Shown one piece after another: positions 10,895-32,000 of a stretch of 32,000 nucleotides of DNA. How positions within the stretch are numbered: the stretch's first letter is position 1; the number at the start of each line of letters is the position of its first letter. The stretch is from Flavobacteriaceae bacterium (GTDB taxonomy: Bacteria; Bacteroidota; Bacteroidia; Flavobacteriales; Flavobacteriaceae). The translations under genes and the position numbers were made by a program. The notes beneath the pieces were generated by a model. It was not told the origin of the DNA, made no database searches, and worked only from the letters and a program-made list of their open reading frames with translations. The stretch lies in the NCBI GenBank assembly GCA_965224465.1, contig OZ245049.1, forward strand, positions 570,001 through 602,000, written 5' to 3'.

Positions 10895-10904
10895 AGGTAC
10901 ACTA

Positions 10905-13343
10905 TTATAGTTTTTCCCAAATTAAATTTCCGTCCTTGTAATTTACAAGTACTTCATCTGCCGACACAATACTCTCAGAAACAATCATTCTTGAAATTGC
11001 TTTTTTTATATAAGTACGTATTACCCCCGCAATAGGGCGTGCTCCGTACTTTTTAGAATAGCCCTTTCCCGATAAAAACACCAATGCCTGCTCCGATAAT
11101 TTTAAACGTATATTTTTTTGCTCTAACAGCTGCTTTTGCAAACTATTAAATTGCAATTTGAAAATTAATTTCGCTACGTCTTCATGGATTGGTGAAAAAG
11201 GAACCACCTCTGTTAATCTCCCTAAAAATTCAGGTCTAAAATGCTCCGTCATTACCTCGATTAACTGATTAGAACTTGGGATTTTACCCGCATCTATCTG
11301 GTCAGAAATCCATTGGCTTCCAATATTAGAGGTAAATATGATAATTGCATTTGAAAAATCTCCTTCACGTCCTAATTTATCGTGTATTTTACCTTCGTCC
11401 ATAATTTGAAGAAATACATCATATACAGAACTATGTGCTTTTTCAATTTCATCAAAAAGCACCACTGAATACGGTTTTTCTCTAATTTTATTCACCAGCA
11501 TTCCTCCTTCTTCATAGCCCACATACCCCGGAGGTGCTCCGTATAATAAAGCCGCGGAATGCTCTTCCTTAAATTCCGACATATCAAAACGAATCATTGC
11601 GTTTTCATCATCAAATAATAATTCTGCCAATGATTTTGTCAGTTCTGTTTTCCCTGTTCCCGTAGGCCCAAGAAAGAAGAAAGAACCAATTGGCTGATTT
11701 GGATTACTCAAGCCACTTCGAGATTCTATAATGGCATCAGAAAGCGTAGTAATTGCATGATCCTGCCCTTTTACGCGTTCGTTTAATTTTTTTTCTATAT
11801 TTAAAAGACGGTCTTTTTCTTCTGCTTTAATTTTCCCGATAGGAATTCCTGTAATGCTTGCTACTAAGGCCGAAATTTCGTTCTCGGTCACCTCCTTTAT
11901 AGGCACTTTAGCAATAGCACTCGCTTCCTTTAAATATGCTATGATGGTATTTCGGAGTTCTTTTTCCTCATCAATGGATAAAATAGCGTACTTCGTGGAT
12001 ATTTTAGTTAAAATTACTGGGCTTAACCTGTCGGTAGCCAAACGAAATATCAATTTTAATTTTGATACGGCATCTTCATCCTCTGCTGCAACATTCTTTA
12101 ATTGATTCTCTATAATTGCAATCTCTTTTATAGAATTGGTATTACTCATATATACCGATGCCAAGGTTCTGTCTAAAATATCAATAGCTCCATAGGGTAA
12201 TTTGTTTTCTTTAAAATAACGTCTGGAATATTGGATCGCTTCTGAAATGGCCTCTTTATCTATTTTTAATTGATAGTGTGCTGTTAAATTATAACGGTGA
12301 TTGTCCAGACACTTTAACAACAACATGTCCTCCAACTCTTCTAATTTAATAATTTCTAGCTTTCTATTTATAGCGTGCTTTTCAAAGGTTTTCCTATAGG
12401 CATCCGTATTTATGGTTGCAATAAGATTTAATTTACCATCTGTAAGTTGTGAGGCAATTAAATTAGTAATACTCCCAGAAGCCCCCGCATTTTCTGTTAA
12501 CACATGTATATCATCAATCACTAAAAGACAGCTATCCAATTTAGCAACCTTATCAAAAATATTACTTAATTTTTTAGCTACTTCATTTGAATTCGCACAA
12601 TTCGCCAATAATTTAGAGGTCTTTAGACCCAATATCATTTTTTCAATCAATAGCGGATTTTCCGATTCTGCTAAGTATTTCACCAAGGCTTTTACAATCC
12701 CAGTTTTTCCTACACCAGAATCACCTACAATCAATACGCCTCTGTTTTCTTGTCGCTCTAAACTTTCTAAAATTCTACGTATTTCTTTATCCCTACCAAT
12801 AATTAAACTTCCTTGGTCTAGGTTTTTTTGTGTGACTAAATTTGTGCAATAAGGAATTGTTTCAATAAATTCTGAAGTCTCTTTTTCTGTTAAGCTCTTA
12901 GAGGAATAAATGGGAGAATCGTACAAGCTTAAAATATCTTCTTCTCTAATTGTAAGCGTTTCTAATTGCTTATTATCATACACAACTCCTTTTCTTATAA
13001 TGGCTATAAAAACACAAACAGCGTCTATATAATCTGTCCCTAATTTTATTTTAGAACGCTCAGATTCTTCAAATACACGCACTACTTCACTGTCTGGTTG
13101 TATTGCTTCTTCTTCCTTTTTTTCTTCAGAAACGTACATTTCCTGATGCATTTCGAACCAATCTTGTATATACGAAAGGTCTTTGCCTGTACTTGTCAAT
13201 ATTTCGGAAAGTCCCGTTGGCTCCATAAGTAGGGAAATTGCCAAATGTGCCACGCCGTAGGAGGGAAATCCGTCTTTAATTGCAACTGATTTTGCAAGTC
13301 TCACTGCGGAAACCAAACTTGGACTAAAATTATTTTCTATCAT
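10905..13343 (-). CDS. tssH: ClpV (TssH) AAA+ ATPase
   Basis: 812 aa with a Clp N-like domain. AAA-1 has Walker A GDSGVGKTG and Walker B LLVIDDIH. AAA-2 has Walker A GPTGTGKTE and Walker B VVLFDEIEKA, plus the sensor-2 region YGARPIAGVIR. Confidence 0.93.
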   Translation of the reverse strand: MIENNFSPSLVSAVRLAKSVAIKDGFPSYGVAHLAISLLMEPTGLSEILTSTGKDLSYIQDWFEMHQEMYVSEEKKEEEAIQPDSEVVRVFEESERSKIKLGTDYIDAVCVFIAIIRKGVVYDNKQLETLTIREEDILSLYDSPIYSSKSLTEKETSEFIETIPYCTNLVTQKNLDQGSLIIGRDKEIRRILESLERQENRGVLIVGDSGVGKTGIVKALVKYLAESENPLLIEKMILGLKTSKLLANCANSNEVAKKLSNIFDKVAKLDSCLLVIDDIHVLTENAGASGSITNLIASQLTDGKLNLIATINTDAYRKTFEKHAINRKLEIIKLEELEDMLLLKCLDNHRYNLTAHYQLKIDKEAISEAIQYSRRYFKENKLPYGAIDILDRTLASVYMSNTNSIKEIAIIENQLKNVAAEDEDAVSKLKLIFRLATDRLSPVILTKISTKYAILSIDEEKELRNTIIAYLKEASAIAKVPIKEVTENEISALVASITGIPIGKIKAEEKDRLLNIEKKLNERVKGQDHAITTLSDAIIESRSGLSNPNQPIGSFFFLGPTGTGKTELTKSLAELLFDDENAMIRFDMSEFKEEHSAALLYGAPPGYVGYEEGGMLVNKIREKPYSVVLFDEIEKAHSSVYDVFLQIMDEGKIHDKLGREGDFSNAIIIFTSNIGSQWISDQIDAGKIPSSNQLIEVMTEHFRPEFLGRLTEVVPFSPIHEDVAKLIFKLQFNSLQKQLLEQKNIRLKLSEQALVFLSGKGYSKKYGARPIAGVIRTYIKKAISRMIVSESIVSADEVLVNYKDGNLIWEKL

Positions 13344-13350
13344 GAATATA

Positions 13351-15126
13351 TTATAGAATGGTTACATTATAAGGAATGGTGTGCACTGATTTATTTTGCA
13401 ACATCATTTGTAAAAAATGACTCAACCTTTTTTTATTATCTTCATCTAACGTTCCTTCCGAACTAATTTTAATTGAAACTTCTACCGTCCGTACAAGTCC
13501 CTGTTTTCTGCTAGGCGAAAGTCCTACTCCTGGTTTTATAGAAACAGTTTCTATAATTCCCCCAACAGTCATCTTTACAAAAGCCTTTATATCCTCATTC
13601 GATACAATTCTATCTTTGGAAATTAAGCCATACCTTAAACTTCTGATTTTTTCCTTTTCACCTTTACGTATTACCCCTCCAACACTTTCTGTTTGTAGTA
13701 TTATAGAGTTCGCTAGCAAGCCTCCAGATTTGTATTCGTTTAGCAAGGTGCCTTTTTCTACTCCATTTAGCATATTAACATCTGAAACCCAATACTTACA
13801 TTCAAACACGTGGGAGGTTTTATAGGGTATCGCTAATAAATATACTTTTTCATCACCTCCATTCACTCCTTTATAACCATACTCTACTTTCAATTGCAGA
13901 TCGTCTAATTTTATATTTAAATCCTCTAAGAAAGCATTTAATAAATCATACCCTATGGCAGAAAAAGAGCTACCTTCCTCACGTACAGTTTGTATCATTT
14001 TCTCTAATACAGACTTTGCATTACGTTCGTCAAACTGTTCAACATCCCCGAAAAACAACGAATAAGAGCCTTCTAAATCATCAATATTACTTTTAAGTAC
14101 ACTTTGATATTCCTCTCCTTTATCATCTAACAAAGATTCTATATTTAAAAAACACTCTGAACTAAGTGGAGAAATAGAAACTATTTTCCCATTCTTTAAT
14201 ATAGCATGTTGCTTATCGGATAACCTCCTATTCACAACTGGAAACGTATTTAGTGAAATTGATAGCTTCCCCAATTCTTCTTTATTAAAAGCCACAGGAA
14301 ACGAAAGTTTTAGCCAAAATAGTTCTGTATCGTATTCTACTATTTTTTCGCTATTAAATGCATCTCCAACCTTGTTAATAAGTGATTTTTGTTTTTTAGA
14401 GCTATTAGAAAGGTCTATTTCGTAAAGATAATTTTTATAATAAGTATGTACAGAGTCAAAATAATGCTCGTCTTTTTCTGCTACATTTTCTCGTAGTAAT
14501 AAATCTAGTTTATTGCCATCTTCATCAAAAACCTCTACCAATTTTATATAAGAATCTAACAAGGAACCATTTAATAAAATACAGATAGGAAGCGTCTTAA
14601 TTTTTTTCAACAAAGAGGGCTTAATAGCTATACCAACCCAAACAACATAATCGTCCACTTTATAACCTTCCATTGATTCTCTAACCATTTTATCTTGACC
14701 ACACTCATCATTTAATCTTAATTTTTTATCAAAATAAGTACCATGTACATGTGCCTTAAAAATGCGCTGTTCGTTTAATGGTGTAAAGTAAATATCATAT
14801 AACCTTTTTGTCTTTACAGATTTCTGTAAGTAAAAGTGATTTGTTCTAGTAACAACGTCCATATTCTCTGTAGGCATCGCTTTTAAAAGAGCATGTGAAG
14901 GCAATGGCAAAGACCATTGTTCATTCACTAATATTTTTGAGATTCTTGACAAAAGCTTTCCGTCAGAAATTTTAACATCTTGGTACAATTTAGAGAATTC
15001 ATACGAAAACACATCTAACATTAAATCTATAAGTGGATCTAAGGCTCTCTCGTCACTAACCTCCCATAATTCCATAGAACGTTTTCGCATACGCTCTTTG
15101 ATTTTTCTGTAATTTTCATCTACCAT
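13351..15126 (-). CDS. tssF: T6SS baseplate protein TssF
   Basis: 591 aa, immediately downstream of the gp25-like tssE (12-nt gap). Size and position are typical of TssF. Confidence 0.7.
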   Translation of the reverse strand: MVDENYRKIKERMRKRSMELWEVSDERALDPLIDLMLDVFSYEFSKLYQDVKISDGKLLSRISKILVNEQWSLPLPSHALLKAMPTENMDVVTRTNHFYLQKSVKTKRLYDIYFTPLNEQRIFKAHVHGTYFDKKLRLNDECGQDKMVRESMEGYKVDDYVVWVGIAIKPSLLKKIKTLPICILLNGSLLDSYIKLVEVFDEDGNKLDLLLRENVAEKDEHYFDSVHTYYKNYLYEIDLSNSSKKQKSLINKVGDAFNSEKIVEYDTELFWLKLSFPVAFNKEELGKLSISLNTFPVVNRRLSDKQHAILKNGKIVSISPLSSECFLNIESLLDDKGEEYQSVLKSNIDDLEGSYSLFFGDVEQFDERNAKSVLEKMIQTVREEGSSFSAIGYDLLNAFLEDLNIKLDDLQLKVEYGYKGVNGGDEKVYLLAIPYKTSHVFECKYWVSDVNMLNGVEKGTLLNEYKSGGLLANSIILQTESVGGVIRKGEKEKIRSLRYGLISKDRIVSNEDIKAFVKMTVGGIIETVSIKPGVGLSPSRKQGLVRTVEVSIKISSEGTLDEDNKKRLSHFLQMMLQNKSVHTIPYNVTIL

Positions 15127-15138
15127 AATTTGCGGTTT

Positions 15139-15567
15139 TTATTGCGATAAAGGACTAACGTATACTGAAGTATTGAAATTAAAAACTTCTCCCGTTTGAA
15201 AAAGTCTCCCTGCAACTCTAATTACAGCTTTTCGTTTTATCTCTGAATATGTTTTTGAACTGGCATCCATCTCAACTTCACTCAAGACAACATTTACCTT
15301 TACATCGTACAATCTATTTTCATACTTATTAACGGTACGTATCAAAGATTTTCGCACAAGTTCTTCCCATTTGTGAAGTTTTACGAGCTGATTAAATTCT
15401 AATTCCCAAATATCGGAACCAAAATCTTCTCTTCCCGCAACCTCTCCATATCTACAAGTTATTTGCATCATTAAATGCTGAGCAACAGATTCTTCCAAGG
15501 AGCAACGCTCTATAGTGGCAATCTTTAGCATTTCCGAAAAGTCTAAAGGCAACTTAAGGTAATTCAT
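15139..15567 (-). CDS. tssE: T6SS baseplate protein TssE (gp25/GPW-like)
   Basis: 142 aa, gp25-like size. It is the first gene of the minus-strand operon and divergent from tssB. The segment SVAQHLMMQITCRYGEVAGREDFGSDIWELEF resembles the gp25 family core. Confidence 0.75.
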   Translation of the reverse strand: MNYLKLPLDFSEMLKIATIERCSLEESVAQHLMMQITCRYGEVAGREDFGSDIWELEFNQLVKLHKWEELVRKSLIRTVNKYENRLYDVKVNVVLSEVEMDASSKTYSEIKRKAVIRVAGRLFQTGEVFNFNTSVYVSPLSQ

Positions 15568-15664
15568 AGTAAAGTAATTTTTCTTTTTCGCAACAAAGAT
15601 TAATAAAAATAACGGTTATCGTAAAGAATATTCAAATTATTTTTTATTTTAGCACAAAAAAACT
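15568..15664. promoter_or_regulatory. divergent promoter region between tssE and tssB
   Basis: 97-bp AT-rich intergenic region between two divergent operons. TATTTTAG (15645-15652) is a 7/8 match to the Bacteroidota -7 box TAnnTTTG on the + strand. No experimental support. Confidence 0.3.
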
Positions 15665-16123
15665 ATGTCAATGTATAATTATGGAATTGGAGGAAACGAG
15701 GTCGAAGTAAATGCTAATGAAGCAATATCAGACATTCCCGCAAACAGAACACTATTAATTCAAAAACTTACCAATGAAAGCCCGGTAAACCCAGAAGCAG
15801 TTTACGGTTTACAAACGGTTGAAGATGTATTTGAAAAATTTTCACCAAAAATAGATATCGAATTTAAAGATAAAAATGGAGCGGATATTAAAGAAATGAT
15901 CGCGTTTAAAAATTTAGGAGACTTTAACCCAAAATCTATTAAAGAAAATAGTTCTTTTTTAAGCAGGTTAAATATTGAGCAAGAGCAAAATACGAAAACG
16001 GTAAGACAGCTTACGTCTAATAGAGCCCTTAAAAAAGCACTTGAAAACCCTGAGACAAGAGCCGCTATTCTTGAATTACTAGAAAACTCCTTAAAGGAAA
16101 TTGAAACCAAAAATTCTATCTAA
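15665..16123 (+). CDS. tssB: T6SS contractile sheath small subunit TssB
   Basis: 152 aa, immediately upstream of the 450-aa TssC-like gene. Size and acidic composition are typical of the Bacteroidota TssB family. Confidence 0.8.
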   Translation: MSMYNYGIGGNEVEVNANEAISDIPANRTLLIQKLTNESPVNPEAVYGLQTVEDVFEKFSPKIDIEFKDKNGADIKEMIAFKNLGDFNPKSIKENSSFLSRLNIEQEQNTKTVRQLTSNRALKKALENPETRAAILELLENSLKEIETKNSI

Positions 16124-16149
16124 ATCTAACGCTATTTAAAAGAAAATTT

Positions 16150-17502
16150 ATGTCAAATAAACCACAAAGTAAAGCAACTACACTTGTAAGACCAAGTAAA
16201 GTAACTAAAGGTACAAATGCCTTAGACGAATATGGTGGATTTTCATTTTTGGAAAACATTATTGATGGGTTTTCAAATTTAAATCCAAAAAGAAAAGCTA
16301 GAAGAAACATCTTTTTAACAGATCCCTTATGGGATACTGAACGTCAAAACCTAACCAACAGATTAAATGTTTGGATCGATTTATTAAAAAGCGGAAAAGA
16401 TGTGGAAGGCATGCGAGATGTCGCCAAAGAAAAGGCCGAAAATGCTGAATCTTTATTGCATGTTAATTTAAAAAACGCTTTAAAATCAACAGAAGAACTA
16501 GAACGCTCTTACAGATCTGTAGCACTCTTCTATAAAAATTCAGAATCGGATAAAGTTAAAAATATCACCATTTTAAATGCAGAAATGGATCAGTTAAGGG
16601 ATCTAGACAACCCAATTTTTATTGATTTTGTAGCGAATGAATTAAAACAAAATTTTGATCGCCTAGATTTAAGAACCAATTATGGAATCCTCACCATCCC
16701 AGGTTATTTAGGCTCCAATGCTATATTGGATAAGTGGTCTAAAGTAGCCTATGCTAATAAAACCATTTTGGTTACAGACTTCCAAGACTTAGAATCTCCC
16801 AATGATGTTGTGGATATTTTCTTTAATGCAGACCATACAGGAGGTGATGTATTTAAGTCTAATACTTTAATGACTTGTAACTGGTTATTAGGCAGAAAAA
16901 AAGATGATATTATTGGAGAAGAAGAAAATATTTACATACCACCCTCGACTGCTTTAGCAGGAAAAATATACAGCACCTTAATGTCTCAAGTAGTTGCAGG
17001 TAAAAAGTTTGGAGGTATTAACGAAGTAGAAAGTGTTCGCTTTGATCTAAAGAAAAGTGAAATTTCTGAATTGGAAAAGATAGGCTTGGTACCAATGGTT
17101 AATGAATATAGTAAAGTGATGGCTTTTTCTGCTAAAACTTTATTTAATGGCGATAACTTAGGATTGCAAACCTATTCCGTTGTTCGTGTTTTTGATCATA
17201 TTACAAAAGTTTTGTTTGACTTCTTAAACAGAAGGGCTTTTGAAAATTGGACCACTAGAACAGAGGCTGACTTAAGGAGTCAAATTGTTAAATTCTTAGA
17301 TAATATCCAAGGAGCTTCTAAATTAATAGAGAAATTTAAAGTTGTAAAAATAGAACAAGACCCTAACCAAAAAGACAGGGTGTTATTAGACATTCATATT
17401 ACGCCTTATTTTCCAGCCAAAAGTTTTGTAATTCAGTTAGATGGTCACAAAGGTGACGGACCTGAAAAAGCTGAATGGCACAGTGAATATAAACAAGTAT
17501 AA
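16150..17502 (+). CDS. tssC: T6SS contractile sheath large subunit TssC
   Basis: 450 aa, paired with tssB (26-nt gap) and followed by a strong terminator. The size fits Bacteroidota TssC. Confidence 0.85.
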   Translation: MSNKPQSKATTLVRPSKVTKGTNALDEYGGFSFLENIIDGFSNLNPKRKARRNIFLTDPLWDTERQNLTNRLNVWIDLLKSGKDVEGMRDVAKEKAENAESLLHVNLKNALKSTEELERSYRSVALFYKNSESDKVKNITILNAEMDQLRDLDNPIFIDFVANELKQNFDRLDLRTNYGILTIPGYLGSNAILDKWSKVAYANKTILVTDFQDLESPNDVVDIFFNADHTGGDVFKSNTLMTCNWLLGRKKDDIIGEEENIYIPPSTALAGKIYSTLMSQVVAGKKFGGINEVESVRFDLKKSEISELEKIGLVPMVNEYSKVMAFSAKTLFNGDNLGLQTYSVVRVFDHITKVLFDFLNRRAFENWTTRTEADLRSQIVKFLDNIQGASKLIEKFKVVKIEQDPNQKDRVLLDIHITPYFPAKSFVIQLDGHKGDGPEKAEWHSEYKQV

Positions 17503-17527
17503 ATAGTATCTATAAATGTATAAAAAA

Positions 17528-17558
17528 GGCTGTTTACAATTTAAACAGCCTTTTTTTT
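17528..17558 (+). terminator. Rho-independent terminator after tssC
   Basis: GGCTGTTTAcaattTAAACAGCC is a 9-bp perfect stem with a 5-nt loop, followed by T8. Confidence 0.8.
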
Positions 17559-17583
17559 GTTTAACTTCTACAATAAAAAAATA

Positions 17584-18222
17584 ATGAAAAAAATATTTAT
17601 TTTCTATTCTTTACTTCTTTTTGTATGTCATGATAATTATGCACAGGACAGTAATAACCTATGGATTATTGGATTAGGAACAAATGCGGTAGATTTCTAC
17701 CCAACAAATGAATCTGAAACTATTACAGGAAACCAAGCAGGTTTAGGAAGTCAACTTTTTAATGTAAACGATCACTGGAACAAATTTGGTCTTCCAAAAA
17801 TTAATATTACGCGATACCTTTCAAAACGTTTTTCTGCTGACATTTCTTTTGCTATGAATAAAATAAAAATAATTGGAGAACATAAAATTGATGAAATCTC
17901 GTACCAAACTATTGACGCAAGGCTGCAATACAGTTTTTTAAAAGACAACTATAAATTCTCTCCTAATATCTCTATTGGAATAGGGCGCACTTGGCTTGAC
18001 AATATAGGATCAGAAACCCTTAATGGAGGTTTAGGAATTACGTATTGGTTTACTGAACAGTTTGGTATAAACGGGATGGCAAGTTACAAATACACTCTCG
18101 GTAAACAGCCTAAGATATTACAGCATTTATGCTACTCCGCAAGTATTGTATTTAGATTTGGCAGTAAAAAAGAAGATATAAACTGCGAAGACTGCCTAAA
18201 AAAAGAAGAGCTCGAACAGTAA
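17584..18222 (+). CDS. small outer-membrane beta-barrel (porin/OmpW-like) protein
   Basis: Start taken at MKKIFIFYSLLLFVCHDNYA/QD (signal peptide); the ORF track begins 27 nt earlier. It has alternating amphipathic beta-strand patterns and aromatic-rich segments (GLGITYWFTEQFGINGMASYKY, YSASIVFRFG). Confidence 0.6.
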   Translation: MKKIFIFYSLLLFVCHDNYAQDSNNLWIIGLGTNAVDFYPTNESETITGNQAGLGSQLFNVNDHWNKFGLPKINITRYLSKRFSADISFAMNKIKIIGEHKIDEISYQTIDARLQYSFLKDNYKFSPNISIGIGRTWLDNIGSETLNGGLGITYWFTEQFGINGMASYKYTLGKQPKILQHLCYSASIVFRFGSKKEDINCEDCLKKEELEQ

Positions 18223-18249: not shown

Positions 18250-18470
18250 TAAAAATGAAATTATAAATAGTATAAATCCAAGTTGTAATTACTGTTCAAT
18301 CCTATTAAAAAAGGAATACGAAAAAGCACCATACCCAGATTATAGTGTAGAAACATCTCTCTTAAAACAGCAGAAATCTACCCTAAAACCATAGAAATGA
18401 ACAATAAAAAATAGTTGGATCGCTTGAAAATTTAAAAAATTTGAATATTCTTAACAAAAACCAATACATA
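18250..18470 (+). pseudogene. decayed 3' end of a tyrosine recombinase gene (remnant copy A)
   Basis: Homologous at roughly 70% by eye to 30719-30915. It reads ...KTAEIYPKTIE...IVGSLENL with stops and frameshifts, corresponding to the ...TTEIYTH......SPLD.L C-terminus of Bacteroidota integrases. Confidence 0.45.
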
Positions 18471-18542
18471 CCCCGAAACTATTATAGACATAACGGAAAT
18501 AACGTCAAGTTTTGGAAGTTTATTGATGATATACGGGTGTTG
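18471..18542 (+). repeat. conserved 72-nt cassette leader, copy A
   Basis: CCCCGAAACTATTATAGACATAACGGAAATAACGTCAAGTTTTGGAAGTTTATTGATGATATACGGGTGTTG. It is 70/72 identical to 30916-30987, and similarity stops exactly after GGTGTTG in both copies. Confidence 0.85.
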
Positions 18543-19515
18543 TGTGCAAGTTAACAGCAGAACGTATAAATCAAATTCATCAAAAATCAATAATATGGGA
18601 AATCCAAGTATAAGATTTGGAAAATATACACCAACAGATAGAAAAGCAACTAAAGAATGTAAATATATACCACCTCCAATTCCACAAGGAACTTGTTCGT
18701 ATTATGAATCAAGATTTACTAATTTTATGAAAAGACATTCTGACTGCCAACACGAGCCCCCAGTTTACTATTATGGTCCATTATCAGAAATGGGAGAAAT
18801 CAGTGCAATGGAAAAACTTAAAATTAGACTTTCTACTTTACCTATTCATTTAGCTGTTATTGGACAAACTGATGGACAAAGAGCTGTAAAAGATGCAGAA
18901 GAAGAGAGAATGAAAAAGGACATGAATTCTCCTTATAAATACGAACGAAAAGAGAAAACACTTGTTCCTCGACCAGAAGAAAGCTATGGATATAAATATT
19001 GCGAATTATTTACTAATGAGCTAATGCCTAAGTTAACTATTGATGGCAAAAATTGGTTAAAACAAGTCAAATTGGATTTACAAAAACTAATGGAAAAAGG
19101 TGTTGTAAGTTTAAATTATGTATCTGAATTAAGTAAAGATTATAATATTATAAACGGATTTATTAAAAAAGGACAATCGGAATCAGAATCAGAAAAAATT
19201 ATTGAAAAATTCTACACTAATATTGAACTCAATAATACTCGCTTTCAAAGTTTTGCCTTTGCTACACATCCAGATGCTTATAATCCTAAAAAAATGAGTG
19301 AATTACCCGCACACGACCTTATACGAATTATGTTTACTCCTGATTTTAAAGAATTTAGTAAACCCGAAACATGGGATCAAATAAAAACTATGGTGAAAAA
19401 TATGGATTATGGAACAATTACAGAATCGACATGGGAAAAATTAAAAAAAGACACTAATGAAATAATAGAAAAAGGGGCTAAAGAATTAAAAAAATACTGG
19501 GATGAAATATTTTAG
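18526..19515 (+). CDS. hypothetical cytoplasmic-type protein (no signal peptide); start ambiguous (18526 inside the leader, or 18595 MGNPSIRF)
   Basis: Long ORF with no recognisable family. Cys/His-containing segments: CKYIPPPIPQGTCSYYESRF, HSDCQHEPP, YGYKYCELF, FATHPDAY. Its 3' end overlaps the next gene by 14 nt. Confidence 0.7.
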   Translation: MIYGCCVQVNSRTYKSNSSKINNMGNPSIRFGKYTPTDRKATKECKYIPPPIPQGTCSYYESRFTNFMKRHSDCQHEPPVYYYGPLSEMGEISAMEKLKIRLSTLPIHLAVIGQTDGQRAVKDAEEERMKKDMNSPYKYERKEKTLVPRPEESYGYKYCELFTNELMPKLTIDGKNWLKQVKLDLQKLMEKGVVSLNYVSELSKDYNIINGFIKKGQSESESEKIIEKFYTNIELNNTRFQSFAFATHPDAYNPKKMSELPAHDLIRIMFTPDFKEFSKPETWDQIKTMVKNMDYGTITESTWEKLKKDTNEIIEKGAKELKKYWDEIF

Positions 19516-20629
19516 AATAATAATAATAATAATAGCTGCCTTAATAATTATAAATACAGTATCCTGCCAAAACAAAACTAAAGAAAACATGAATTGGAAA
19601 ATAATAGATTTTAACAAAATATCTGGAGAAACTTTAATGGACGAATATTTTAATTCAATAAATAAATATAAGTTCAATCAAATCCTTACTCTTAATGAAA
19701 ACCATATTATTTTATTAGGTGATAACAGTGGAGATAGAAATGAAGAATACTTACCAAAAGAAAGCGAAGCAATTGTATTTGTTTCAATAGATGGAGGTGA
19801 AACTTTATTAAAACATAATTTAGGAAAAGGTTCTTTGACAAATGCTATTTCTGTTGATAATGATCTTTTTTTAGTAAATAATCTTTCAGTAGGTCGTGAA
19901 TTTTCTAGTCAACTAATCAAATCTGATCCTTTTTTAAAAGAATGGGAAGTAGTAAATGAATTTAAGACTGAAAAAATAATTGGTGTTCGCTTTTACTCTT
20001 CCAATATTGGAATAGCGAGTTTTTTTCATAGAAACCCCATTAATCAAGAATTAATAGACGAAGAAAAATACACCCTTGACGGTGGGAGGAATTGGTCAAA
20101 AATTATAAATAGCAATAACAAAGGATTTACATATTCTAGATTTATTTCTTCCGAAGAAATTGAATGCATAGAAAATAATAAACTTGTTAAATTTAATTTC
20201 ATCACAGGAGAGAAAGAAATTATAACAGAACAAATAGCTCCTAGAGGCTACAAATGCTTAGGGTATTATGAAGATACAAAAACTAAAGAATATTATACGT
20301 TCTTAGAAAACATAAATAATAAAACAGATTACTCAATAAAATATATTAACACACAAGAAATAATTAAATTGCCAAAAGGAACAGATGATATAGAAGTTTA
20401 TGGAAACTATCTCCACGCAATGGTTAAAGATGGAATATACTATAATTATGTTTGGAGTGATGACAAAGGTAAAACATGGAATACAGAAGAATTAAGAGAT
20501 TTCTTTGTAGACCATAGGCCTATTGAATACTATGGAGAAGGCTATGTTTATGCTTTTGTGACTTCTTTTAAAGGTAAAAAATCTGAAAAAGGAGGAAGGT
20601 TTGCAATAAGAAAACCTGCAAATAACTAA
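19502..20629 (+). CDS. lipoprotein with BNR/Asp-box repeats (beta-propeller-like)
   Basis: Lipoprotein signal MKYFRIIIIIIAALIIINTVSC/QNK. Three Asp-box-like motifs are present: SIDGGETL, TLDGGRNWS and SDDKGKTWN. Confidence 0.75.
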   Translation: MKYFRIIIIIIAALIIINTVSCQNKTKENMNWKIIDFNKISGETLMDEYFNSINKYKFNQILTLNENHIILLGDNSGDRNEEYLPKESEAIVFVSIDGGETLLKHNLGKGSLTNAISVDNDLFLVNNLSVGREFSSQLIKSDPFLKEWEVVNEFKTEKIIGVRFYSSNIGIASFFHRNPINQELIDEEKYTLDGGRNWSKIINSNNKGFTYSRFISSEEIECIENNKLVKFNFITGEKEIITEQIAPRGYKCLGYYEDTKTKEYYTFLENINNKTDYSIKYINTQEIIKLPKGTDDIEVYGNYLHAMVKDGIYYNYVWSDDKGKTWNTEELRDFFVDHRPIEYYGEGYVYAFVTSFKGKKSEKGGRFAIRKPANN

Positions 20630-20674
20630 GCATATGGCCTGCCGATAGTCCAAGGCTATATGCATTGTTGACTA
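20621..20674 (+). repeat. cassette 3' boundary motif copy 1 (AATAACTAAG - hairpin - TGTTGACTA)
   Basis: AATAAC contains the stop codon of the lipoprotein gene. An internal hairpin pairs GCATATGGCC (20630-39) with GGCTATATGC (20654-63), 9 Watson-Crick pairs plus 1 G:T. TGTTGACTA lies at 20666-74. Confidence 0.6.
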
Positions 20675-20871: not shown

Positions 20872-22020
20872 CTACTTAGTGTATTTCTGTATCTTACGCT
20901 TTGCAATCGCTTTAAAATTATCTGGTGGACCGCGATTATCAAAGCTTAATAGCGTAATTAATTTTCCTTTTTTACAGCTTGGACAAGTATTTAAAACCGT
21001 TTTTTCTACTTCAATAGTTGCTACTAGATAATCAAGTTCCTTATCCGATAATTGCTGTTGTAATTGACCTAATTTTTCCTTTTTCCAACTAGCACTTAAA
21101 TATCCATAATGCCTAATTCTGGTAAATCCTTTGGGCAAAACATGATTTTGAAATCGTTTTATAAATTCTCTAGTACTTAACGTTTGTATCTTTTTTTTGC
21201 CATTGTTTCTATAATCTTTTAAACTAAATGTTACTTTTTTATGTTCTCTATCAATGTTTAAGATACGGTGGTTACTTATCGCTATTTTATGCGTGTATCT
21301 CCCTAAATATTCAATCACATTTTCGGGCTTACCAAACGGCGCTTTGGTATAAACCACCCAGTTTTTCTTGAATAGTTTATCGTATATTTCTTGCCCAATC
21401 CCTGGTAATTTCTTTCTTAGTTTAGATACAAAAACCCCTCTAAACTTCGCGCTCATAGCTTCTACACTAAATAAAAAATCATCTTTACCACTTCCCTTTT
21501 TCCAATAACCAGCCTTGCTAACTCCTCCTTTTGGCACAATACAATGTAAATGAGGATGCAAACTTAAATTCTGACCCCAAGTATGTAATATTGCGATCAT
21601 TCCTAATTTTGCACCTAAGTGTTTTGGATTATTGCCAAAAGCAGATAGTGTCTCCCAAACACTATCAAACAATATTTTATAAAGCACTTTAGGCTGCGAT
21701 AAAGCGATAGGATTTAAATGATGTGGTATCGTAAAAACCACATGAAAATAGGGAACGGGTAAAAGCTCCTTGCTTCTGGCAGCAACCCACTCATGTTGTT
21801 TATGTCCTTGACAAGTTGGACAATGTCTATTCCTGCATGAATTAAATTGTAAATGCAATTTATTACAGTTCAAACACCAGTCTAAATGACCTCCCAATTC
21901 TTTAGTTCTACATTTCCTAAGTGCATGTAATGTCCTTGAATGCCAGGATGTATTTGACCATTTATCAATACTATCCTGCTCTATATTTAGAATATCTGCA
22001 ACAGTATGTTTTGCAAACAC
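20872..22020 (-). CDS. IS91-family (Y2 HUH, rolling-circle) transposase
   Basis: 382 aa with an N-terminal zinc-binding region (CLNCNK...CRNRHCPTCQGHKQHEW). HUH motif HPHLHCIV; two-tyrosine motif YLGRYTHKIAISNHRI. Confidence 0.9.
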   Translation of the reverse strand: MFAKHTVADILNIEQDSIDKWSNTSWHSRTLHALRKCRTKELGGHLDWCLNCNKLHLQFNSCRNRHCPTCQGHKQHEWVAARSKELLPVPYFHVVFTIPHHLNPIALSQPKVLYKILFDSVWETLSAFGNNPKHLGAKLGMIAILHTWGQNLSLHPHLHCIVPKGGVSKAGYWKKGSGKDDFLFSVEAMSAKFRGVFVSKLRKKLPGIGQEIYDKLFKKNWVVYTKAPFGKPENVIEYLGRYTHKIAISNHRILNIDREHKKVTFSLKDYRNNGKKKIQTLSTREFIKRFQNHVLPKGFTRIRHYGYLSASWKKEKLGQLQQQLSDKELDYLVATIEVEKTVLNTCPSCKKGKLITLLSFDNRGPPDNFKAIAKRKIQKYTK

Positions 22021-22862
22021 TATTTTTTGTATAGCGTATCTAAAGGACTAAATTTTATAGAACTACCAGTATTTGCAACGTGTAAATAAATCATTGTTGT
22101 TTCAATACGTGCATGTCCCAATAGTTCCTTTAAACTAATGATATTTAAACCGTCTTCTAATAAATGGGTGGCATAAGAATGGCGTAATGTATGTGCTGTA
22201 TACTTTTTTTTCGTTGCTACCTTTGAGCGAGATTCTTTTAGTATCCAATGAATTCCGTTTACCGTAAATGCACGCGATAAACCATCTTTTGTTACTTGAC
22301 TATTGAATAAATATTTAACGGGATTTTCTGTCTGTAAATACTGTTGTAATCCTCGCGCCAAATGATCGCTTAAAGGGACATAACGGTCTGTTCTTCCTTT
22401 TTGTTTTTTTACGAATACAGTTTTTCGTTCAAAATCAACATCTGATTGCAATAAATTACAAAGCTCATAACTTCGTAATCCACAACCGTACAACATGCCC
22501 ATAATTAACCGATGTTTCAGGTATTTGGGGCTAGACAATATTTGACGAACCTCTGACTTGTTTAACACAATTGGCAAGTCTTTTTGGCCTTTAATCTCTG
22601 GTAATTTAATTAGTTTTTGCTTCATTCCCAAAGCTTTGTAGGCAGCTCGAAGACCAAAAACAATGTGTTTGAAAAAACTATCCGATGGTGTTTTATGAAG
22701 GTTTTTACAGTGTAGTAAATAGTCATTAATAGCCTCCTCATCTAATAACTCTGGACTAATTTTATAATGAAGGCATAAATGAGATAAGCAACGTAAATAG
22801 TTCGTTAATGTACTTGTTGCTTTGCCATTTATAACAAAGCTCCTACTCAATTTTGAAACCAA
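22020..22862 (-). CDS. tyrosine recombinase/integrase co-transcribed with the IS91-family transposase; 5' end possibly frameshifted
   Basis: Catalytic region GLRSYEL...HTLRHSYATHLLEDG...LLGHARIETTMIYLHV...SPLDTL. Its stop overlaps the transposase start. The track start is a TTG; the same frame is open to 22928, and an ATG at 22927 is one base out of frame across an A8 run. Confidence 0.85.
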   Translation of the reverse strand: MVSKLSRSFVINGKATSTLTNYLRCLSHLCLHYKISPELLDEEAINDYLLHCKNLHKTPSDSFFKHIVFGLRAAYKALGMKQKLIKLPEIKGQKDLPIVLNKSEVRQILSSPKYLKHRLIMGMLYGCGLRSYELCNLLQSDVDFERKTVFVKKQKGRTDRYVPLSDHLARGLQQYLQTENPVKYLFNSQVTKDGLSRAFTVNGIHWILKESRSKVATKKKYTAHTLRHSYATHLLEDGLNIISLKELLGHARIETTMIYLHVANTGSSIKFSPLDTLYKK

Positions 22863-23058
22863 ATTACTGAATTCTGGTACAGATTCTAAAGCAGTTTCCT
22901 GAATTGTTTTACTTTTTTTTGAAACATATTATCTAATTTTATTATGAGTTTCAAATGTACTATATTTACATAAAGAGCATAAAAGCTTCCGAGGCACTAG
23001 GATTAGTTCAATCGAGTAGACGGGTGACAACTGAATAGTTGCCACTGCGCCTCTCACA

Positions 23059-23089
23059 CCACCGTACGTACGGGTCTCGTATACGGCGG
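23059..23089 (-). ncRNA. group II intron domain V (short, CGC triad)
   Basis: Minus strand CCGCCGUAU-ACG-AGACC-CGU-AC-GUACGGUGG. It is a 31-nt hairpin with the AC bulge, and CGC replaces AGC at the catalytic triad position, as in class C introns. Confidence 0.7.
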
Positions 23090-23090
23090 T

Positions 23091-23640
23091 TCAAAAAATT
23101 GAAGTCTGCGTATTATTAATGTAATCTATCAAAGGTTTATACCCTTTTCGTACAAGTCTAGATTTGGTAATGGTAGTCTTTAAAATTGGACTTTGGGCTA
23201 CTGCCCATCCTCCCATTCTGGTTCTACTCCAAGCGTATGCTTGTCCATTCTCTATTCCTAATCTGATTAGGTTTTTACGTTTTCGTTCGAGTTTTTTCCA
23301 ATCGTGCCAAATACAATATCGCAACCGATTTCTTATCCACTCATCTAGCTTTTTAACTTTTGCATAGATGTTGGTTAAACGGTAATTATTCATCCAGCCT
23401 CGGCAGACTTGATTAAGCCGTTCTAAACGTTCCGACAATGACATTGGTTTGGTTTTCTTGGTAATACTCTTTAGGTTACGCTTAAACTTTGCCCAACTTT
23501 TCTTTGCTACTACTAGTATATATTGTCCTTTTACTCCCTTTTTGTAGACTGGCACAAAGCCATGTCCTAGTAACTCAAAGTTTACGGGTCTACGAATGCC
23601 ACTTTTGGCTTTATTTATAGGTAGTTTTAATTTGTCCTTA
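23091..23640 (-). pseudogene. group II intron RT/maturase, C-terminal fragment (thumb/X domain)
   Basis: KLKLPINKAKSGIRRPVNFELLGHGF...RLNQVCRGWMNNYRL (maturase X-domain signature). There is no endonuclease domain. It is separated from the RT part by the IS30 element. Confidence 0.85.
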
Positions 23641-24757
23641 AATTCAACTAATAAACGCAACTTTTCGATTTGATTCTATGATGGTTATATTTTCAAAACA
23701 GAAAAGTAGGAAAACCTACCTTTCTTGTCTTGATGGATATGTATCTTACGGTCTCAAATCTCGAAAAAAGAAGTTGTATGAAACACATCACCCAAGCGCA
23801 AAGATACACAATTTGTTGCATGTTAAAACAAGGTTATAAACAGGTTGAGATAGCAGCTGCTATAGGAAAAGACAAGTCTGTTATTAGCAAAGAGATTAAG
23901 CGTAATTCAGACAAAAGAAATGGAGTTTACAAGCATGAATTAGCCCAAAAAAAGTATGCTAAACGTCATAAAGAAAAGCCTAAAAGAAAACGCTTTACAG
24001 AAGATATTCAACAAGCAATAGAGTTGTTATTGCGAGACGATTATAGTCCTGAGCAAGTAGTTGGTGTCCTAAAAAAACAAGGTAAAGAAACGGTGTCTAT
24101 TGAGCGTATATATCAGCATATTAGGGAAGACAAGAGGAATGATGGTGATTTACATACACACCTTCGCAGACAGGGAAGGAGATATAGAAAACGTGGCTCA
24201 TCAAAGGATTCTAGAGGGGTTATAAAGAATCGTATTAGTATAGAACAACGCCCTGAAGTTGTTGAACAAAGAAATCGATTTGGAGATTTAGAGGTCGATT
24301 TAATCATAGGTAAAAACCATAATCAAGCCATACTTACCGTAAATGATAGAGCTTCTGGAATGCTTAAAATGAAAAAAGTAAGCTCTAAAGAAGCAGTTGT
24401 TGTCACTAAAGCTATCAATGAAATATTAGAAGACTGGAAGCCTTATCTACATACTATAACAGCTGATAATGGAAAAGAATTTGCAGGCCATGAGCAGGTT
24501 GCAGAAAATTTATGTATTGATTACTTTTTTGCGCATCCATATCACTCTTGGGAAAGAGGATCTAACGAAAATTTAAATGGTTTGATTAGACAATATTTTG
24601 CCAAAGGAAGTGACTTTACAAACCTAACAGATCAAAGAATCAAAGAGGTAGAAACAAAATTAAATAACAGACCTAGGAAGAGACATAAATATCAAAACCC
24701 TATATTTGTAATGGAACAATTATTATTTAACTAAAAGTTGCGTTTGTGACTTGAATT
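23641..24757 (+). mobile_element. IS30-family insertion sequence (about 1.12 kb) inside the intron ORF
   Basis: Terminal inverted repeats are AATTCAACTAATAAACGCAACTTTT (23641-65) and AAAAGTTGCGTTTGTGACTTGAATT (24733-57). It interrupts the RT reading frame after ...FVFLKD. Exact ends are +/- a few bp and the target duplication is not resolved. Confidence 0.85.
23778..24734 (+). CDS. IS30-family DDE transposase
   Basis: N-terminal HTH ITQAQRYTICCMLKQGYKQVEIAAAIGKDKSVISKEIKRN. DDE region LEVDLIIG...TITADNGKEF...SWERGSNENLNGLIRQYF. Start taken at MKHITQ; the track ORF starts 48 nt earlier at a TTG. Confidence 0.9.
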   Translation: MKHITQAQRYTICCMLKQGYKQVEIAAAIGKDKSVISKEIKRNSDKRNGVYKHELAQKKYAKRHKEKPKRKRFTEDIQQAIELLLRDDYSPEQVVGVLKKQGKETVSIERIYQHIREDKRNDGDLHTHLRRQGRRYRKRGSSKDSRGVIKNRISIEQRPEVVEQRNRFGDLEVDLIIGKNHNQAILTVNDRASGMLKMKKVSSKEAVVVTKAINEILEDWKPYLHTITADNGKEFAGHEQVAENLCIDYFFAHPYHSWERGSNENLNGLIRQYFAKGSDFTNLTDQRIKEVETKLNNRPRKRHKYQNPIFVMEQLLFN

Positions 24758-24761
24758 CAGC

Positions 24762-25499: not shown

Positions 25500-26142
25500 A
25501 GGTTAAATAATTCGGGTACTCCTGTTGGTTTAAAACTAGGCTAGCTAGGCATCCTAATTGAATTTCAACGTAATTTAATGTTCTGTCCTTCCCTATTTGT
25601 GAGACCATCTGAGGTCTTTCCTCAACTCGTTTCCCATAGGTACTATGACGTCTGCTGACTTCTCCATAGAACCAACTCCTGGCTTTGGAGACCTCCCCAG
25701 GTAATGACATCTTCTTTCACTCAATCACTGCCGTATCTACATAACTACCCTTTTAGTATTCTTTTGGGCGTTGCAATGATGTGTTTACTTACCCAAGTAA
25801 TTATACCTCTGTATACGGTTTCTGTTCGTCAGTACCGAGCTTTGTAGTCTCGCTTCCTTCAGATAAAACCTCACGGTTTTCACCCTTGCGACTTACTAAT
25901 GTTTCAGAACGTTACTCCTGCACATAAGGGACTTGCACCCTCTAGATTAATTAACTACCTTTCCGTAGTTAAAAGATGCCCATGCTGGGCACACACACGG
26001 TATATAAAAAATAGCAGTTAAGTGCAAACTTCAAAGGTTTGTGCTTTTCTACTATTTTTGTTTAAAATTGAAAGTAATAGCATATTTATTCTGCTACTTT
26101 TCATATACCAACACGTTACCAGTAATTTAACAAAAAAAAACA

Positions 26143-26937: not shown

Positions 26938-26973
26938 CCAGATAAAATCATGAATAACAAAAAAACTACAGGT

Positions 26974-27015
26974 AATAACTAAGTGCTCGTGCGGTGCGTA
27001 GGGGACTGTTGGCTA
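26974..27015 (+). repeat. cassette 3' boundary motif copy 2 (AATAACTAAG ... TGTTGGCTA)
   Basis: AATAACTAAGTGCTCGTGCGGTGCGTAGG matches copies 3 and 4. It has a shorter spacer and no obvious hairpin. Confidence 0.55.
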
Positions 27016-30403: not shown

Positions 30404-30413
30404 TAGAAACTAT

Positions 30414-30987
30414 AATAACAGGATGTTCGTGCGATGCATAGCGCCCATCATAAACATCCTGTTGACTATACCGGCTCAAAAGATGATGCTATAGGGATTG
30501 TGTGACTTAATTAAGAGGCTATCGACAAAAACCTAAATAGGTACCACCTGTTTTTAGATACGGATACGCATTGGTCAGTAGTGTTTTGGCTTGCGTTTCC
30601 CAGTACGTGGCTACGTTTGTTTATTTTCGGTTATTATTACATGCTTTTATTCGTTGTAACCAATAAGCAGCTGGGGCCTCTTCTGCTAAACAGATAGCCT
30701 GTTTTGAGTTTTCCTATCTTATAGTCGTTCTATTTTTCAACAACGCTAGAATGCAAAATAAACTATTTATATCAGTTATTTTGGATTGTAATTTTATTAG
30801 GTTATGGTTCTCCAAAAACCACAGAGATATACACCAAGACCATCGAAATAAAAAAATAGTTGGACCGCTTGAAAATTTAAAAAAATTGAATACTTTTATA
30901 AAAAAACAACAGACACCCCGGAACTATTATAGACATAACGGAAATAACGTCAAGTTTTGGAAGTTTATTGATGATATATGGGTGTTG
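30414..30987 (+). repeat. inter-cassette spacer, copy 1: boundary motif 3, 347-bp GC-richer segment, recombinase 3' remnant B (30719-30880) and 72-nt leader B (30916-30987)
   Basis: AATAAC lies at 30414, a hairpin pairs CAGGATGTT (30419-27) with AACATCCTG (30453-61), and TGTTGACTA lies at 30460-68. Segment 30434-30780 is 100% identical to 31654-32000. The remnant reads L*SFYFSTTLECKINYLYQLFWIVILLGYGSPKTTEIYT, then after a frameshift KIVGPLENL. Confidence 0.85.
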
Positions 30988-31009
30988 AGCTTAATAAAAA
31001 ACAAAAAAA

Positions 31010-31123
31010 ATGGAAGTAAAAACAGGGTTCATATTAGTTGCGATTTTTTCAATACTTGCAGGAAGTTATGCTATTTATGCGTCATATAAAAACTCACACA
31101 AAAACTATTCTCAAAAAAATTAA
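31010..31123 (+). CDS. small hydrophobic ORF, possibly the frameshifted 5' part of the LRR gene
   Basis: ATG 22 nt after the leader end gives MEVKTGFILVAIFSILAGSYAIYASYKNSHKNYSQKN (one TM helix). The next ORF's frame is open from 31090 but has no ATG. Confidence 0.3.
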   Translation: MEVKTGFILVAIFSILAGSYAIYASYKNSHKNYSQKN

Positions 31124-31170
31124 AACATAGATTAGTTCAAAACATACTTGGAATAAATGGAGCAAGAGTC

Positions 31171-31629
31171 TTGTATGGATTTTTAGGATTGGGATTAATT
31201 TTGTTCGGTACTTTTATATTGTTTCAATTTTTTGTAACCCCCAAATTAGGTAATGAATATAATAATAAAACGAATCAATTTATCATTTCATCAAGAACAA
31301 TTAATAAAGAAGGATATACTTTAAATTCAAATATTATAACAAATTTAAATCAATTAGAATCAAGAATAAAATTTGGAGGAGAAGAACAATTAAATCAATA
31401 TGTGAAGATTAGTTTTAAGAATAATTATCTCGAAGAAATACCTCAAATAGTTTGGAAAATGAAAAACCTGACAACTATAGATTTAACATATAACAAAATT
31501 GTAAATTTAAACATTGAACAAATTTCCAAAATGGATAGTTTAAAAATAATTGTGTTAAAAAACAACCCTATTACAAAGGAAAATATTAATAAATTAAGGA
31601 AGAAAACAAGTATTGAAATACGATACTAA
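31171..31629 (+). CDS. membrane-anchored leucine-rich-repeat protein (TTG start or frameshifted)
   Basis: TM helix GFLGLGLILFGTFILFQFFV. LRR units: NYLEEIPQIVWKMKNLTTIDLTYNKIVNLNIEQISKMDSLKIIVLKNNPI. Confidence 0.6.
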   Translation: MYGFLGLGLILFGTFILFQFFVTPKLGNEYNNKTNQFIISSRTINKEGYTLNSNIITNLNQLESRIKFGGEEQLNQYVKISFKNNYLEEIPQIVWKMKNLTTIDLTYNKIVNLNIEQISKMDSLKIIVLKNNPITKENINKLRKKTSIEIRY

Positions 31630-31633
31630 GCCT

Positions 31634-32000
31634 AATAACTAAGTGTTCGTGCGGTGCATAGCGCCCATCATAAACATCCTGTTGACTATACCGGCTCAAA
31701 AGATGATGCTATAGGGATTGTGTGACTTAATTAAGAGGCTATCGACAAAAACCTAAATAGGTACCACCTGTTTTTAGATACGGATACGCATTGGTCAGTA
31801 GTGTTTTGGCTTGCGTTTCCCAGTACGTGGCTACGTTTGTTTATTTTCGGTTATTATTACATGCTTTTATTCGTTGTAACCAATAAGCAGCTGGGGCCTC
31901 TTCTGCTAAACAGATAGCCTGTTTTGAGTTTTCCTATCTTATAGTCGTTCTATTTTTCAACAACGCTAGAATGCAAAATAAACTATTTATATCAGTTATT
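31634..32000 (+). repeat. inter-cassette spacer, copy 2 (boundary motif 4 plus the identical 347-bp segment), truncated by the window edge
   Basis: Offset of exactly 1220 bp from copy 1. It is identical from 31654 to the window end. Confidence 0.9.

Follow-up and report, generated by a model that had tools for sequence, protein, structure and literature searches.

The 72-nt leader that occurs twice in the window, by which we mean the whole 32,000-nt stretch of Flavobacteriaceae DNA analyzed here, is probably the attI-type primary recombination site of an integron-like gene-cassette system in Flavobacteriaceae. From the sequence comparisons described below, we give this reading a probability of about 0.8. 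In an intact platform, for which locus L097 is the example, the gene for a 368-aa recombinase, which is co-oriented with the cassettes, is followed by a site of ~65–75 bp that would be double-stranded, and circular cassettes, each consisting of an ORF and a hairpin attC, would be inserted by strand exchange between G and TT at the 3' end of the leader. As a consequence of exchange at G|TT, the sequence up to the G would stay constant, and everything from TT onward would belong to the newest cassette. In the window, leader copy A heads the array beside a type VI secretion system (T6SS) cluster, and copies B and C are internal, within a repeated unit of 597 nt. This array, which is full of IS elements and carries a group II intron, would be active only if the cognate recombinase is encoded elsewhere in the genome.

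The leader and its 3' end

The two leader copies, A at 18471-18542 and B at 30916-30987, differ at only 2 of 72 positions, namely at 18476 (A/G) and 18534 (C/T). In a comparison of the window with itself, the match reaches back to 18358 and 30809, respectively, with 84% identity overall and with indels upstream of the leaders. Differences were found in 27 of the 113 upstream columns (identity ~76%) as opposed to 2 of the 72 leader columns (Fisher p = 5e-5), and the homology between A and B ends exactly after GGGTGTTG, from where A continues with TGTGCAAG and B with AGCTTAAT. The earlier note on this DNA had described near-identical 72-nt copies with diverged upstream sequence and a sharp end, a description that these counts bear out. 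The leader core ACATAACGGAAATAACGTC occurs twice in the window, once in each leader, with 0.02 occurrences expected.

The nhmmer envelope, the conservation profile and the lack of a hairpin delimit leader A as a putative attI-like double-strand recombination site at 18465..18542 on the plus strand, with a conserved core at 18481-18542, ATAAC boxes at 18490-18494 and 18499-18503, and a predicted G|TT crossover between 18539 and 18540. Leader B, delimited likewise by nhmmer envelope and conservation profile, spans 30909..30987 on the plus strand, with ATAAC boxes at 30935-30939 and 30944-30948 and the predicted G|TT crossover between 30984 and 30985. It is the last part of unit B, which comprises 597 nt (30391-30987) and contains an attC-like site, a non-coding tail, a recombinase remnant and the leader. 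Unit C starts at 31611, is 96% identical to unit B over 390 nt and leaves the window at its end. Since this third copy of the unit runs off the window, a third leader probably lies just past base 32000.

Scans with exact 20-mers and 23-mers of the leader gave no matches in viral, genome and metagenome collections, because the relatives differ at 2-3 bases of that stretch. Two metagenome proteins were obtained with a conceptual peptide in which the recombinase remnant was joined to the next reading frame. The protein P0001 reads MLGHASPKTTEIYTKTIEINNKKIVGPLENLKNLNTFNKKNNK*, and therefore the true C-terminus of the recombinase runs through IVGPLENL, which is frameshifted in the window, and stops just before the leader. 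Both P0001 and P0077 stop before the leader, and the idea that the leader is a coding 3' extension of the recombinase was rejected. A multi-frame concatenated peptide query across the leader, meant for spurious ORFs, gave no matches.

At locus L081, the contig that encodes P0001, a recombinase stub adjoins cbiA, the leader ends with ...ATTGATGATATACGGGTGTTG, and seven genes follow on the same strand with classical attC anatomy between them. A metagenome scan with the 21-mer from this leader end identified 11 contigs and, together with the window, yielded 13 distinct leader copies, the metagenome copies coming from four related samples and possibly representing only a few genomes. Divergent versions of the leader were found in Flavivirga, Algibacter and NORP270, the closest relative of the window. 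Averaged over all pairs of the 13 copies, identity is 0.81-0.98 between positions -60 and -1, reaches 1.00 throughout the final 8 bases and drops to 0.41 at the base directly following GTTG. Toward the left, conservation fades gradually, the upstream contexts fall into at least four unrelated groups, and the start of the recombinase stub differs among the stub-bearing copies. Sharp loss on the right and a ragged left side together indicate a junction that is fixed at the right end but not at the left. The idea of a second constant crossover on the left side, at G|TTAGG within the remnant, was rejected, as the left ends differ among loci. In every copy of the alignment homology is kept up to GTT(G) and lost there; this is the opposite of a homology continuing past GTTG at variable positions, which the earlier note had named as the observation that would speak against its reading.

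The same ~62 nt are conserved across unrelated contexts and genera with unrelated flanks. This bears on the possibility that the contrast in conservation merely reflects a recent duplication or gene conversion of a dead relic, for which the 96% identity of units B and C and the heavy disruption of the array could be cited; given conservation of that breadth, we regard this explanation as highly improbable. The alignment of the family across lineages retains an A.ATAAC box, a G.TATAC box, a 4-nt spacer and GTT. Of the two ATAAC repeats that the earlier note had pointed out, both are present in both window leaders, but the pair is lineage-specific and only the second box (A.ATAAC) is family-wide. 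Binding of the recombinase would occur at the ATAAC-type boxes and at the TATAC box that precedes GTT by 4 nt. On the other side of the junction, the 7th base after GTTG is an invariant A in 13/13 junctions (18549 and 30994 in the window), with semi-conserved neighbours (..TAAT), which suggests that a cassette-side R' box is recognised over ~11 bp.

The leader could instead be mainly an expression signal that travels with the cassettes, that is, a promoter, a 5' UTR or a short leader ORF, with its sharp end marking only the point at which a conserved regulatory module gives way to variable coding sequence. It always lies upstream of ORFs and in their orientation, and in the window subfamily an ATG is conserved and AAGTTTTG at -36 comes close to the Bacteroidota -7 box. 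The ATG at 18526 in leader A is in frame with a 330-aa ORF, and the one at 30971 in leader B gives MIYGC*, as the earlier note had stated; the next ATG, at 31010, lies 21 nt past that stop and not 22 nt as given there. However, both the -7-like box and the ATG are absent from the leaders of Flavivirga, Algibacter, L097 and L098, and no Bacteroidota -33/-7 promoter motif is conserved across the leader family, in which near-matches are confined to subfamilies. In addition, the leader is without an RNA structure signal and without an Rfam match, and an expression signal would leave unexplained the reverse complementarity between the bases that follow GTT and the start of the cassette's attC. The promoter or 5' UTR proposed in the earlier note thus found no support in a conserved motif of the Bacteroidota type, and a leader peptide is not a feature of the family because the ATG is missing from those four leaders. 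We therefore judge a primarily regulatory leader to be unlikely, although a secondary role in expression is possible by analogy with class 1 integrons, in which ORF-11 and Pc provide a precedent for expression. In integrons, Pc is a promoter that lies upstream of attI and from which the cassettes are expressed. Leader A also contains, on the minus strand and directed toward the recombinase stub, a near-consensus sigma-70-type match (18481-18508; TTGACG, 16 nt, TATAAT; 11/12), which is not conserved in the relatives and whose relevance in Bacteroidota is doubtful.

Leaders also recur inside arrays, as in units B and C of the window, twice in L089 and six times in Flavivirga, and they are often preceded by ..AAC and end in GTT. 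This would fit a folded attC-type site of a pseudo-cassette without ORF rather than an attI. Folding of the leader was, however, no better than that of shuffled sequences on either strand, as RNA or as DNA (z = +0.1 to +0.8), its 5' part varies without compensating changes in the 3' part, and in L097 it directly follows an intact recombinase gene. An attC identity of the leader is accordingly very unlikely; the unfolded leader fits a double-stranded attI.

Cassette ends and attC-like sites

All cassettes of the window lie on the plus strand and are accompanied by repeated units. The cassette or cassettes docked at leader A extend over 18540..20666 (+) and contain ORFs at 18595-19515 and 19502-20629, the second with an Asp-box/BNR hint, while those docked at leader B extend over 30985..31688 (+) and encode a 37-aa membrane peptide (31010-31123) and a 152-aa LRR protein (31171-31629). 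BNR, PD40 and LRR hints were the only ones obtained for window ORFs, with no match to an immunity family, and Pfam searches with the raw translations of the units gave no match.

The 3' boundary motif TAATAAC...CTGTTGRCTA reported in the earlier note was recovered at 26973, 30413 and 31633, along with a fourth, more divergent copy at ~20617-20674. All four attC-like sites are on the plus strand and have in common an R'' box (A/T)AATAAC and an R' box GTTG(A/G)CTA. Site #1 (GCAAATAAC..GCATATGGCC..GGCTATATGC..GTTGACTA; ~20617..20674) follows ORF 19502-20629 and folds weakly (z = -0.4), and site #2 (TAATAAC..GTTGGCTA; 26973..27015), after ORF 26143-26937, is short and does not fold. Site #3 (30413..30468), which follows ORF 29477-30403, has a perfect 11-bp stem AACAGGATGTT/AACATCCTGTT and a DNA fold with z = -3.6. 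Site #4 (31633-31688) does not fold and is followed by the second tail start, which runs to 32000 within unit C. Integron attC sites are imperfect palindromes of ~55-140 nt that carry an R'' (..AAC) and an R' (GTT..) box and fold as single strands; sites of this kind were found in the related loci, whereas in the window only site #3 folds well.

With an integron-type exchange at G|TT, the sequence following the G would be the R' box of the newly inserted cassette's attC and would have to complement the R'' box at the far end of that cassette. Of the 12 testable loci, which all have leaders of the window's type, 6 carry an exact reverse complement of their junction 9-mer (GTTGnnnnn) immediately behind the first downstream ORF or ORFs, compared with 0.12 expected. 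Exact junction complements were likewise present for 4/6 Flavivirga copies (9-10-mers) and in L097 and L098. The leader of L097 reads ..GCGATATAAC..GTAGTTATACGAGTGTTG; both leaders of this locus are identical up to GTTG and differ afterwards, and its first cassette ends with GCAAGACAAC, the complement of its own junction. Each complement 9-mer begins an imperfect palindrome, the well-delimited ones being 55-136 nt long with z = -2.7 to -5.6, and hairpin attC sites were found in L089, L090, L092, Flavivirga and L097. In the window itself, the start of cassette A (GTTGTGTGC) is complementary to the 3' R''-like GCAAATAAC at 7/9 positions, and the complementarity between the junction of cassette B and its R'' is poor.

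The sequence following the G is the reverse complement of the attC start of the cassette inserted there and hence belongs to the incoming cassette, and from these junction sequences the crossover is best placed at G|TT. The loss of homology at the junction and the junction-attC complementarity support the earlier proposal of site-specific recombination between an attI-like leader and attC-like 3' sites. An attI is a site beside an integrase gene at which insertion occurs at G|TT; the adjacency seen in L097 and the junction complements at 6/12 loci correspond to this.

After site #3, a non-coding tail begins at the TT of GTTGACTATACC and extends over 30463..30796 (+). Its first ~110-230 nt are conserved in L088, L098 and L081, and conservation of the sequence following sites #3 and #4 (TTGACTATACC...) extends to L088 and L098 and in part to L081, where it lies at or near the ends of arrays. 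The conserved stretches are 30463-30690 and 31683-31910 in the window, 797-1047 in L088, 4466-4600 in L098 and 7861-7927 in L081. The tail directly follows one conserved attC type (..AAC TAAGTGYTCGTGCGRTGCRTAG..), an arrangement common to the window, two metagenome contigs and the array of the closest relative. The tail gave neither an RNA structure signal nor an Rfam match, and a small hydrophobic ORF within it was rejected because the indel lengths in the tail are not divisible by three. The tail may be what natively flanked the docking site on its right; units B and C would then represent either platforms in tandem or a pseudo-cassette that bears an attI.

The recombinase

Upstream of both window leaders lies the C-terminus of a tyrosine recombinase, SLKTAEIYPKTIEMNNKK* at A and ILLGYGSPKTTEIYTKTIEIKK* at B, the gene being reduced to its last 20-40 codons at both places. 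Remnant A (18358..18464, +) is a decayed, frameshifted version of the last ~35 codons, reading ..KTAEIYPKTIEMNNKK* and then IVGSLENLKNLN in the next frame; its intact counterpart reads ..IYTKTIEINNKKIVGPLENLKNLNTFNKK* in P0001 and P0077. Remnant B (30797..30908, +) covers the last ~37 codons, with ILLGYGSPKTTEIYTKTIEIKK*, a frameshift and then IVGPLENLKKLNTF... The motif of the catalytic tyrosine is part of both remnants (A, ..KTAEIYPKTIEMNNKK*; B, ..KTTEIYTKTIEIKK*). The 32,000-nt window does not encode an intact cognate recombinase.

A phmmer search with the 43-aa stub against 1.84 billion representative proteins returned short fragments only. A profile built from the stub matches retrieved 6846 proteins, the best 120 of which are all fragments of 45-240 aa, and many of these 120 are located on long contigs of Algibacter, Flavivirga, Algoriphagus and Psychroflexus. 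Thousands of C-terminal fragments of this recombinase family are annotated in Flavobacteriaceae and Cytophagia, often several per contig. The best family match of the window stub is to the last 31 positions of the integron-integrase model (E = 7e-4), and its tail aligns with VchIntIA to the end of that protein.

An intact gene was found in L097, where two convergent arrays are each headed by a recombinase gene (one intact and encoding 368 aa, the other frameshifted) with the leader directly after it. The recombinase has the same orientation as the cassettes, and its stop codon lies within ~10 bases of the leader. The 368-aa protein comprises SAM-like and catalytic domains, and its C-terminus, which the window remnant resembles, reads ..IYTKTIEINNKTITSPLDFLLNSPTLRT*. 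On the integron-integrase model TIGR02249 it scores 183 bits, the cut-off being 265, and its two matching stretches leave out model positions 182-238. A segment of 70 residues in VchIntIA (2a3v) corresponds to 27 residues in the L097 protein. Among solved structures, those of archaeal XerA-type proteins are the closest to this protein, which has an IntI-type C-terminal tail (..IYT..SPLD). By sequence, the array recombinase thus resembles both IntI and Xer and is without the IntI-specific insertion. The definition of integrons by Cury et al. 2016 (PMC4889954) includes an integrase criterion, and, as judged from their TIGR02249 scores and for L097 also from the VchIntIA alignment, both the L097 enzyme and the 280-aa integrase of the window described below fall outside it. 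Given its linkage to the leader, the array recombinase would be the enzyme that catalyses cassette insertion. In the intact gene (L097 10159-11265, minus strand), residues 1-90 form an N-terminal extension without a Pfam match (..KRIKIFVPY..FWHPHQKLWSV..), and in fragment P0011 this region of ~90 aa is joined to the C-terminal part. The extension may be an additional DNA-binding domain.

In Flavivirga jejuensis (L095/L096), a 475-nt module occurs six times within 15 kb, in copies that share 97-99% identity and have a sharp boundary on either side. It combines ~130 nt of non-coding DNA with the final ~95 recombinase codons and a leader ending with ..GTAGTTATACAATTGTT, and the recombinase fragments all start at the residue corresponding to 273 of the 368-aa protein. 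Each module precedes different cassettes, including colicin/pyocin-immunity, T6SS Tdi1, ParDE and thioredoxin-like genes; Colicin_Pyocin and T6SS_Tdi1_C are among the families of this array. In NORP270, contig L098, which is not the one with the T6SS locus, carries a longer recombinase pseudogene, followed by a leader and then by a cassette whose attC matches.

The island beside the T6SS cluster

Positions 1-17502 of the window hold a Bacteroidota-type T6SS cluster (TssB/TssC at 15665-17502), which is followed by an OmpA-like gene. A TssC scan of representative genomes assigns the organism to marine Flavobacteriaceae, with the MAG NORP270, whose TssC is 93% identical, as the closest relative. 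At its T6SS locus (L001), housekeeping genes follow the OmpA-like gene and there is no array, and therefore the window from ~18223 onward is a variable island. Relative to L001, the cassette island starts immediately 3' of the T6SS-iii structural cluster and the OmpA-like gene (window 1-18222). The leader was found in none of the 80 T6SS loci of relatives that were scanned. Repeats in the Tenacibaculum locus L005 proved to be coding repeats of polymorphic toxins and were set aside as another phenomenon.

The island contains several other mobile elements. On the minus strand, 20872-22862 encodes an IS91-family transposase (417 bits on NF033538) and, overlapping and upstream of it, a 280-aa Xer/IntI-like integrase. 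This integrase (22020-22862) is 30% identical to the array recombinase, shares its ..SPLD tail and scores below the integron-integrase cut-off. The earlier note had suggested it as a possible partner of the leader; its overlap with the IS91 transposase gene and the low identity make this unlikely. A group II intron lies at ~22990-25997 on the minus strand, antisense to the cassettes, with Rfam D1-D4 matches at 25614-25880. An IS30-like gene (23730-24734) interrupts this intron, whose first ~100 nt are present once more at 29344-29444. Each of the two intron 5' ends immediately precedes a cassette ORF (26143 and 29477), at a place where one would expect a leader or attC. A relation between the GTGCG... 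in the 3' motif and the 5' end of the group II intron was considered and found no support. At Rfam gathering and E-value thresholds, the group II intron was the only match in the window. An IS256-type transposase gene (27211-28443) lies among duplicated fragments of a REP-associated tyrosine transposase (RAYT) gene. Within 27083-29283, a 342-nt sequence is repeated in tandem with 97% identity (28564-28905 and 28920-29261), and its 5' part occurs a third time at 27083-27148.

With IS91, IS30, IS256 and RAYT fragments so abundant, a repeated sequence with one sharp end might itself be the end of an insertion sequence, a MITE or another transposable element. A matching inverted repeat, a target duplication and linkage to a transposase (0/11 metagenome loci) are nevertheless missing, the left boundary is ragged and differs among loci, searches of plasmid records were empty, and the junctions follow the logic of attI x attC recombination. 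The leader thus lacks the marks of an IS or MITE end, and its origin as the end of a transposable element, including the terminal part of a known IS that the earlier note had weighed against its proposal, is extremely improbable.

Discussion

The site of class 1 integrons, attI1, is ~65 bp long and combines accessory integrase-binding repeats, DR1 and DR2, with a simple site ending in GTT. The leader resembles such classical attI sites in being an unstructured site of ~65-75 bp by an integrase gene, with short repeated boxes upstream and a G|TT crossover at which hairpin-attC cassettes would be inserted, and in that the bases after the G come from the R' box of the cassette attC. It differs from them in that its sequence is unrelated and its ..ATAAC boxes are in inverse-core orientation instead of being GTTA-type repeats. 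Moreover, the recombinase gene points toward the cassettes and stops ~10 nt short of the site, and copies of the leader occur inside arrays. Co-orientation of integrase and array is shared with some integrons, but those possess a bona fide IntI with the IntI-specific domain, while here the insertion is missing and an N-terminal region of ~90 aa is extra.

In the VchIntIA-attC structure, the IntI-specific domain contacts the flipped-out bases of folded attC sites. Integron integrases are reported to require the insertion for their activity (Messier & Roy 2001, as cited in PMC4889954), and recombinases without this domain near attC sites have been judged not to be integron integrases (PMC4889954). 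Complete integrons are reported to be almost absent from Bacteroidetes (PMC9024848), and IntegronFinder 2.0 recorded a single complete one in Bacteroidetes proper. Against this background, the leader arrays have a clear attI/attC anatomy and G|TT junctions, yet are headed by a recombinase without the domain thought to define IntI.

The nearest described system is rAID-1 of Bacteroidales (Ross et al., bioRxiv 10.1101/471110), with whose recombinase the present one is compared by description. In both, a XerD-like recombinase lies 5' of a co-directional array with repetitive, integron-reminiscent intergenic sequences. Two or more co-directional genes with repetitive intergenic sequences, as rAID-1 arrays are defined, are present in the window, L081, L095/L096 and L097. 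The rAID-1 definition further asks for a recombinase with at least 44% identity to BF9343_RS08045, and homologues with >50% identity have been reported only in Bacteroidales (10.1101/471110). Cassettes of rAID-1 code for immunity to interbacterial toxins. The Flavivirga array carries colicin/pyocin-immunity and T6SS Tdi1 families, the window array abuts a T6SS cluster, and the window ORFs match no immunity family. By contrast, the hosts here are Flavobacteriaceae, the attI/attC anatomy and the recombinase remnants are absent from the description of rAID-1 (10.1101/471110), and the cargo is broader than immunity genes, including sulfatase, acetyltransferase and beta-lactamase-fold proteins.

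Copies of attI within cassette arrays have a counterpart in the delta-attI-type cassettes (Gonzales Machuca et al. 2026, PMC12901181), in which an attI, partly truncated, lies inside arrays, flanks cassettes and is reported to be recombination-proficient. Those occur in class 1/2 clinical integrons with IntI1, whereas here a recombinase stub is attached and the module is amplified, as with the six 475-nt modules of Flavivirga. The window also resembles a CALIN, a cluster of attC sites without integron integrase (PMC4889954, PMC9024848), in having attC-like sites and cassettes with no integron integrase nearby; unlike a CALIN, it keeps attI-like sites and integrase stubs, and the missing enzyme would fail the two-profile IntI rule in any case. 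What is new here is the combination, in an integron-like system, of a recombinase without the IntI-specific insertion and repeated modules of a recombinase stub plus attI.

A broader interpretation, which we put forward tentatively and at somewhat less than even odds, is that Flavobacteriaceae, and probably Bacteroidota more widely, harbour a separate integron lineage. It would be characterized by hairpin attC sites, a recombinase intermediate between Xer and IntI with an extra N-terminal domain in place of the IntI-specific one, and truncated recombinase-plus-attI modules that are copied through arrays as secondary platforms for docking or expression. If such a lineage exists, standard integron finders would miss the class or score its members as orphan attC clusters, and the window would be a platform of this kind attached to a type VI secretion locus.

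In the window, the variable island beside the T6SS cluster would be accounted for by a cassette platform that has decayed. If the array recombinase, despite having no IntI-specific domain, catalyses cassette insertion, it would represent an evolutionary intermediate between Xer and IntI, its arrays would constitute a large overlooked reservoir of cassettes in marine Bacteroidota, and immunity arrays of the rAID type would gain a mechanistic footing.
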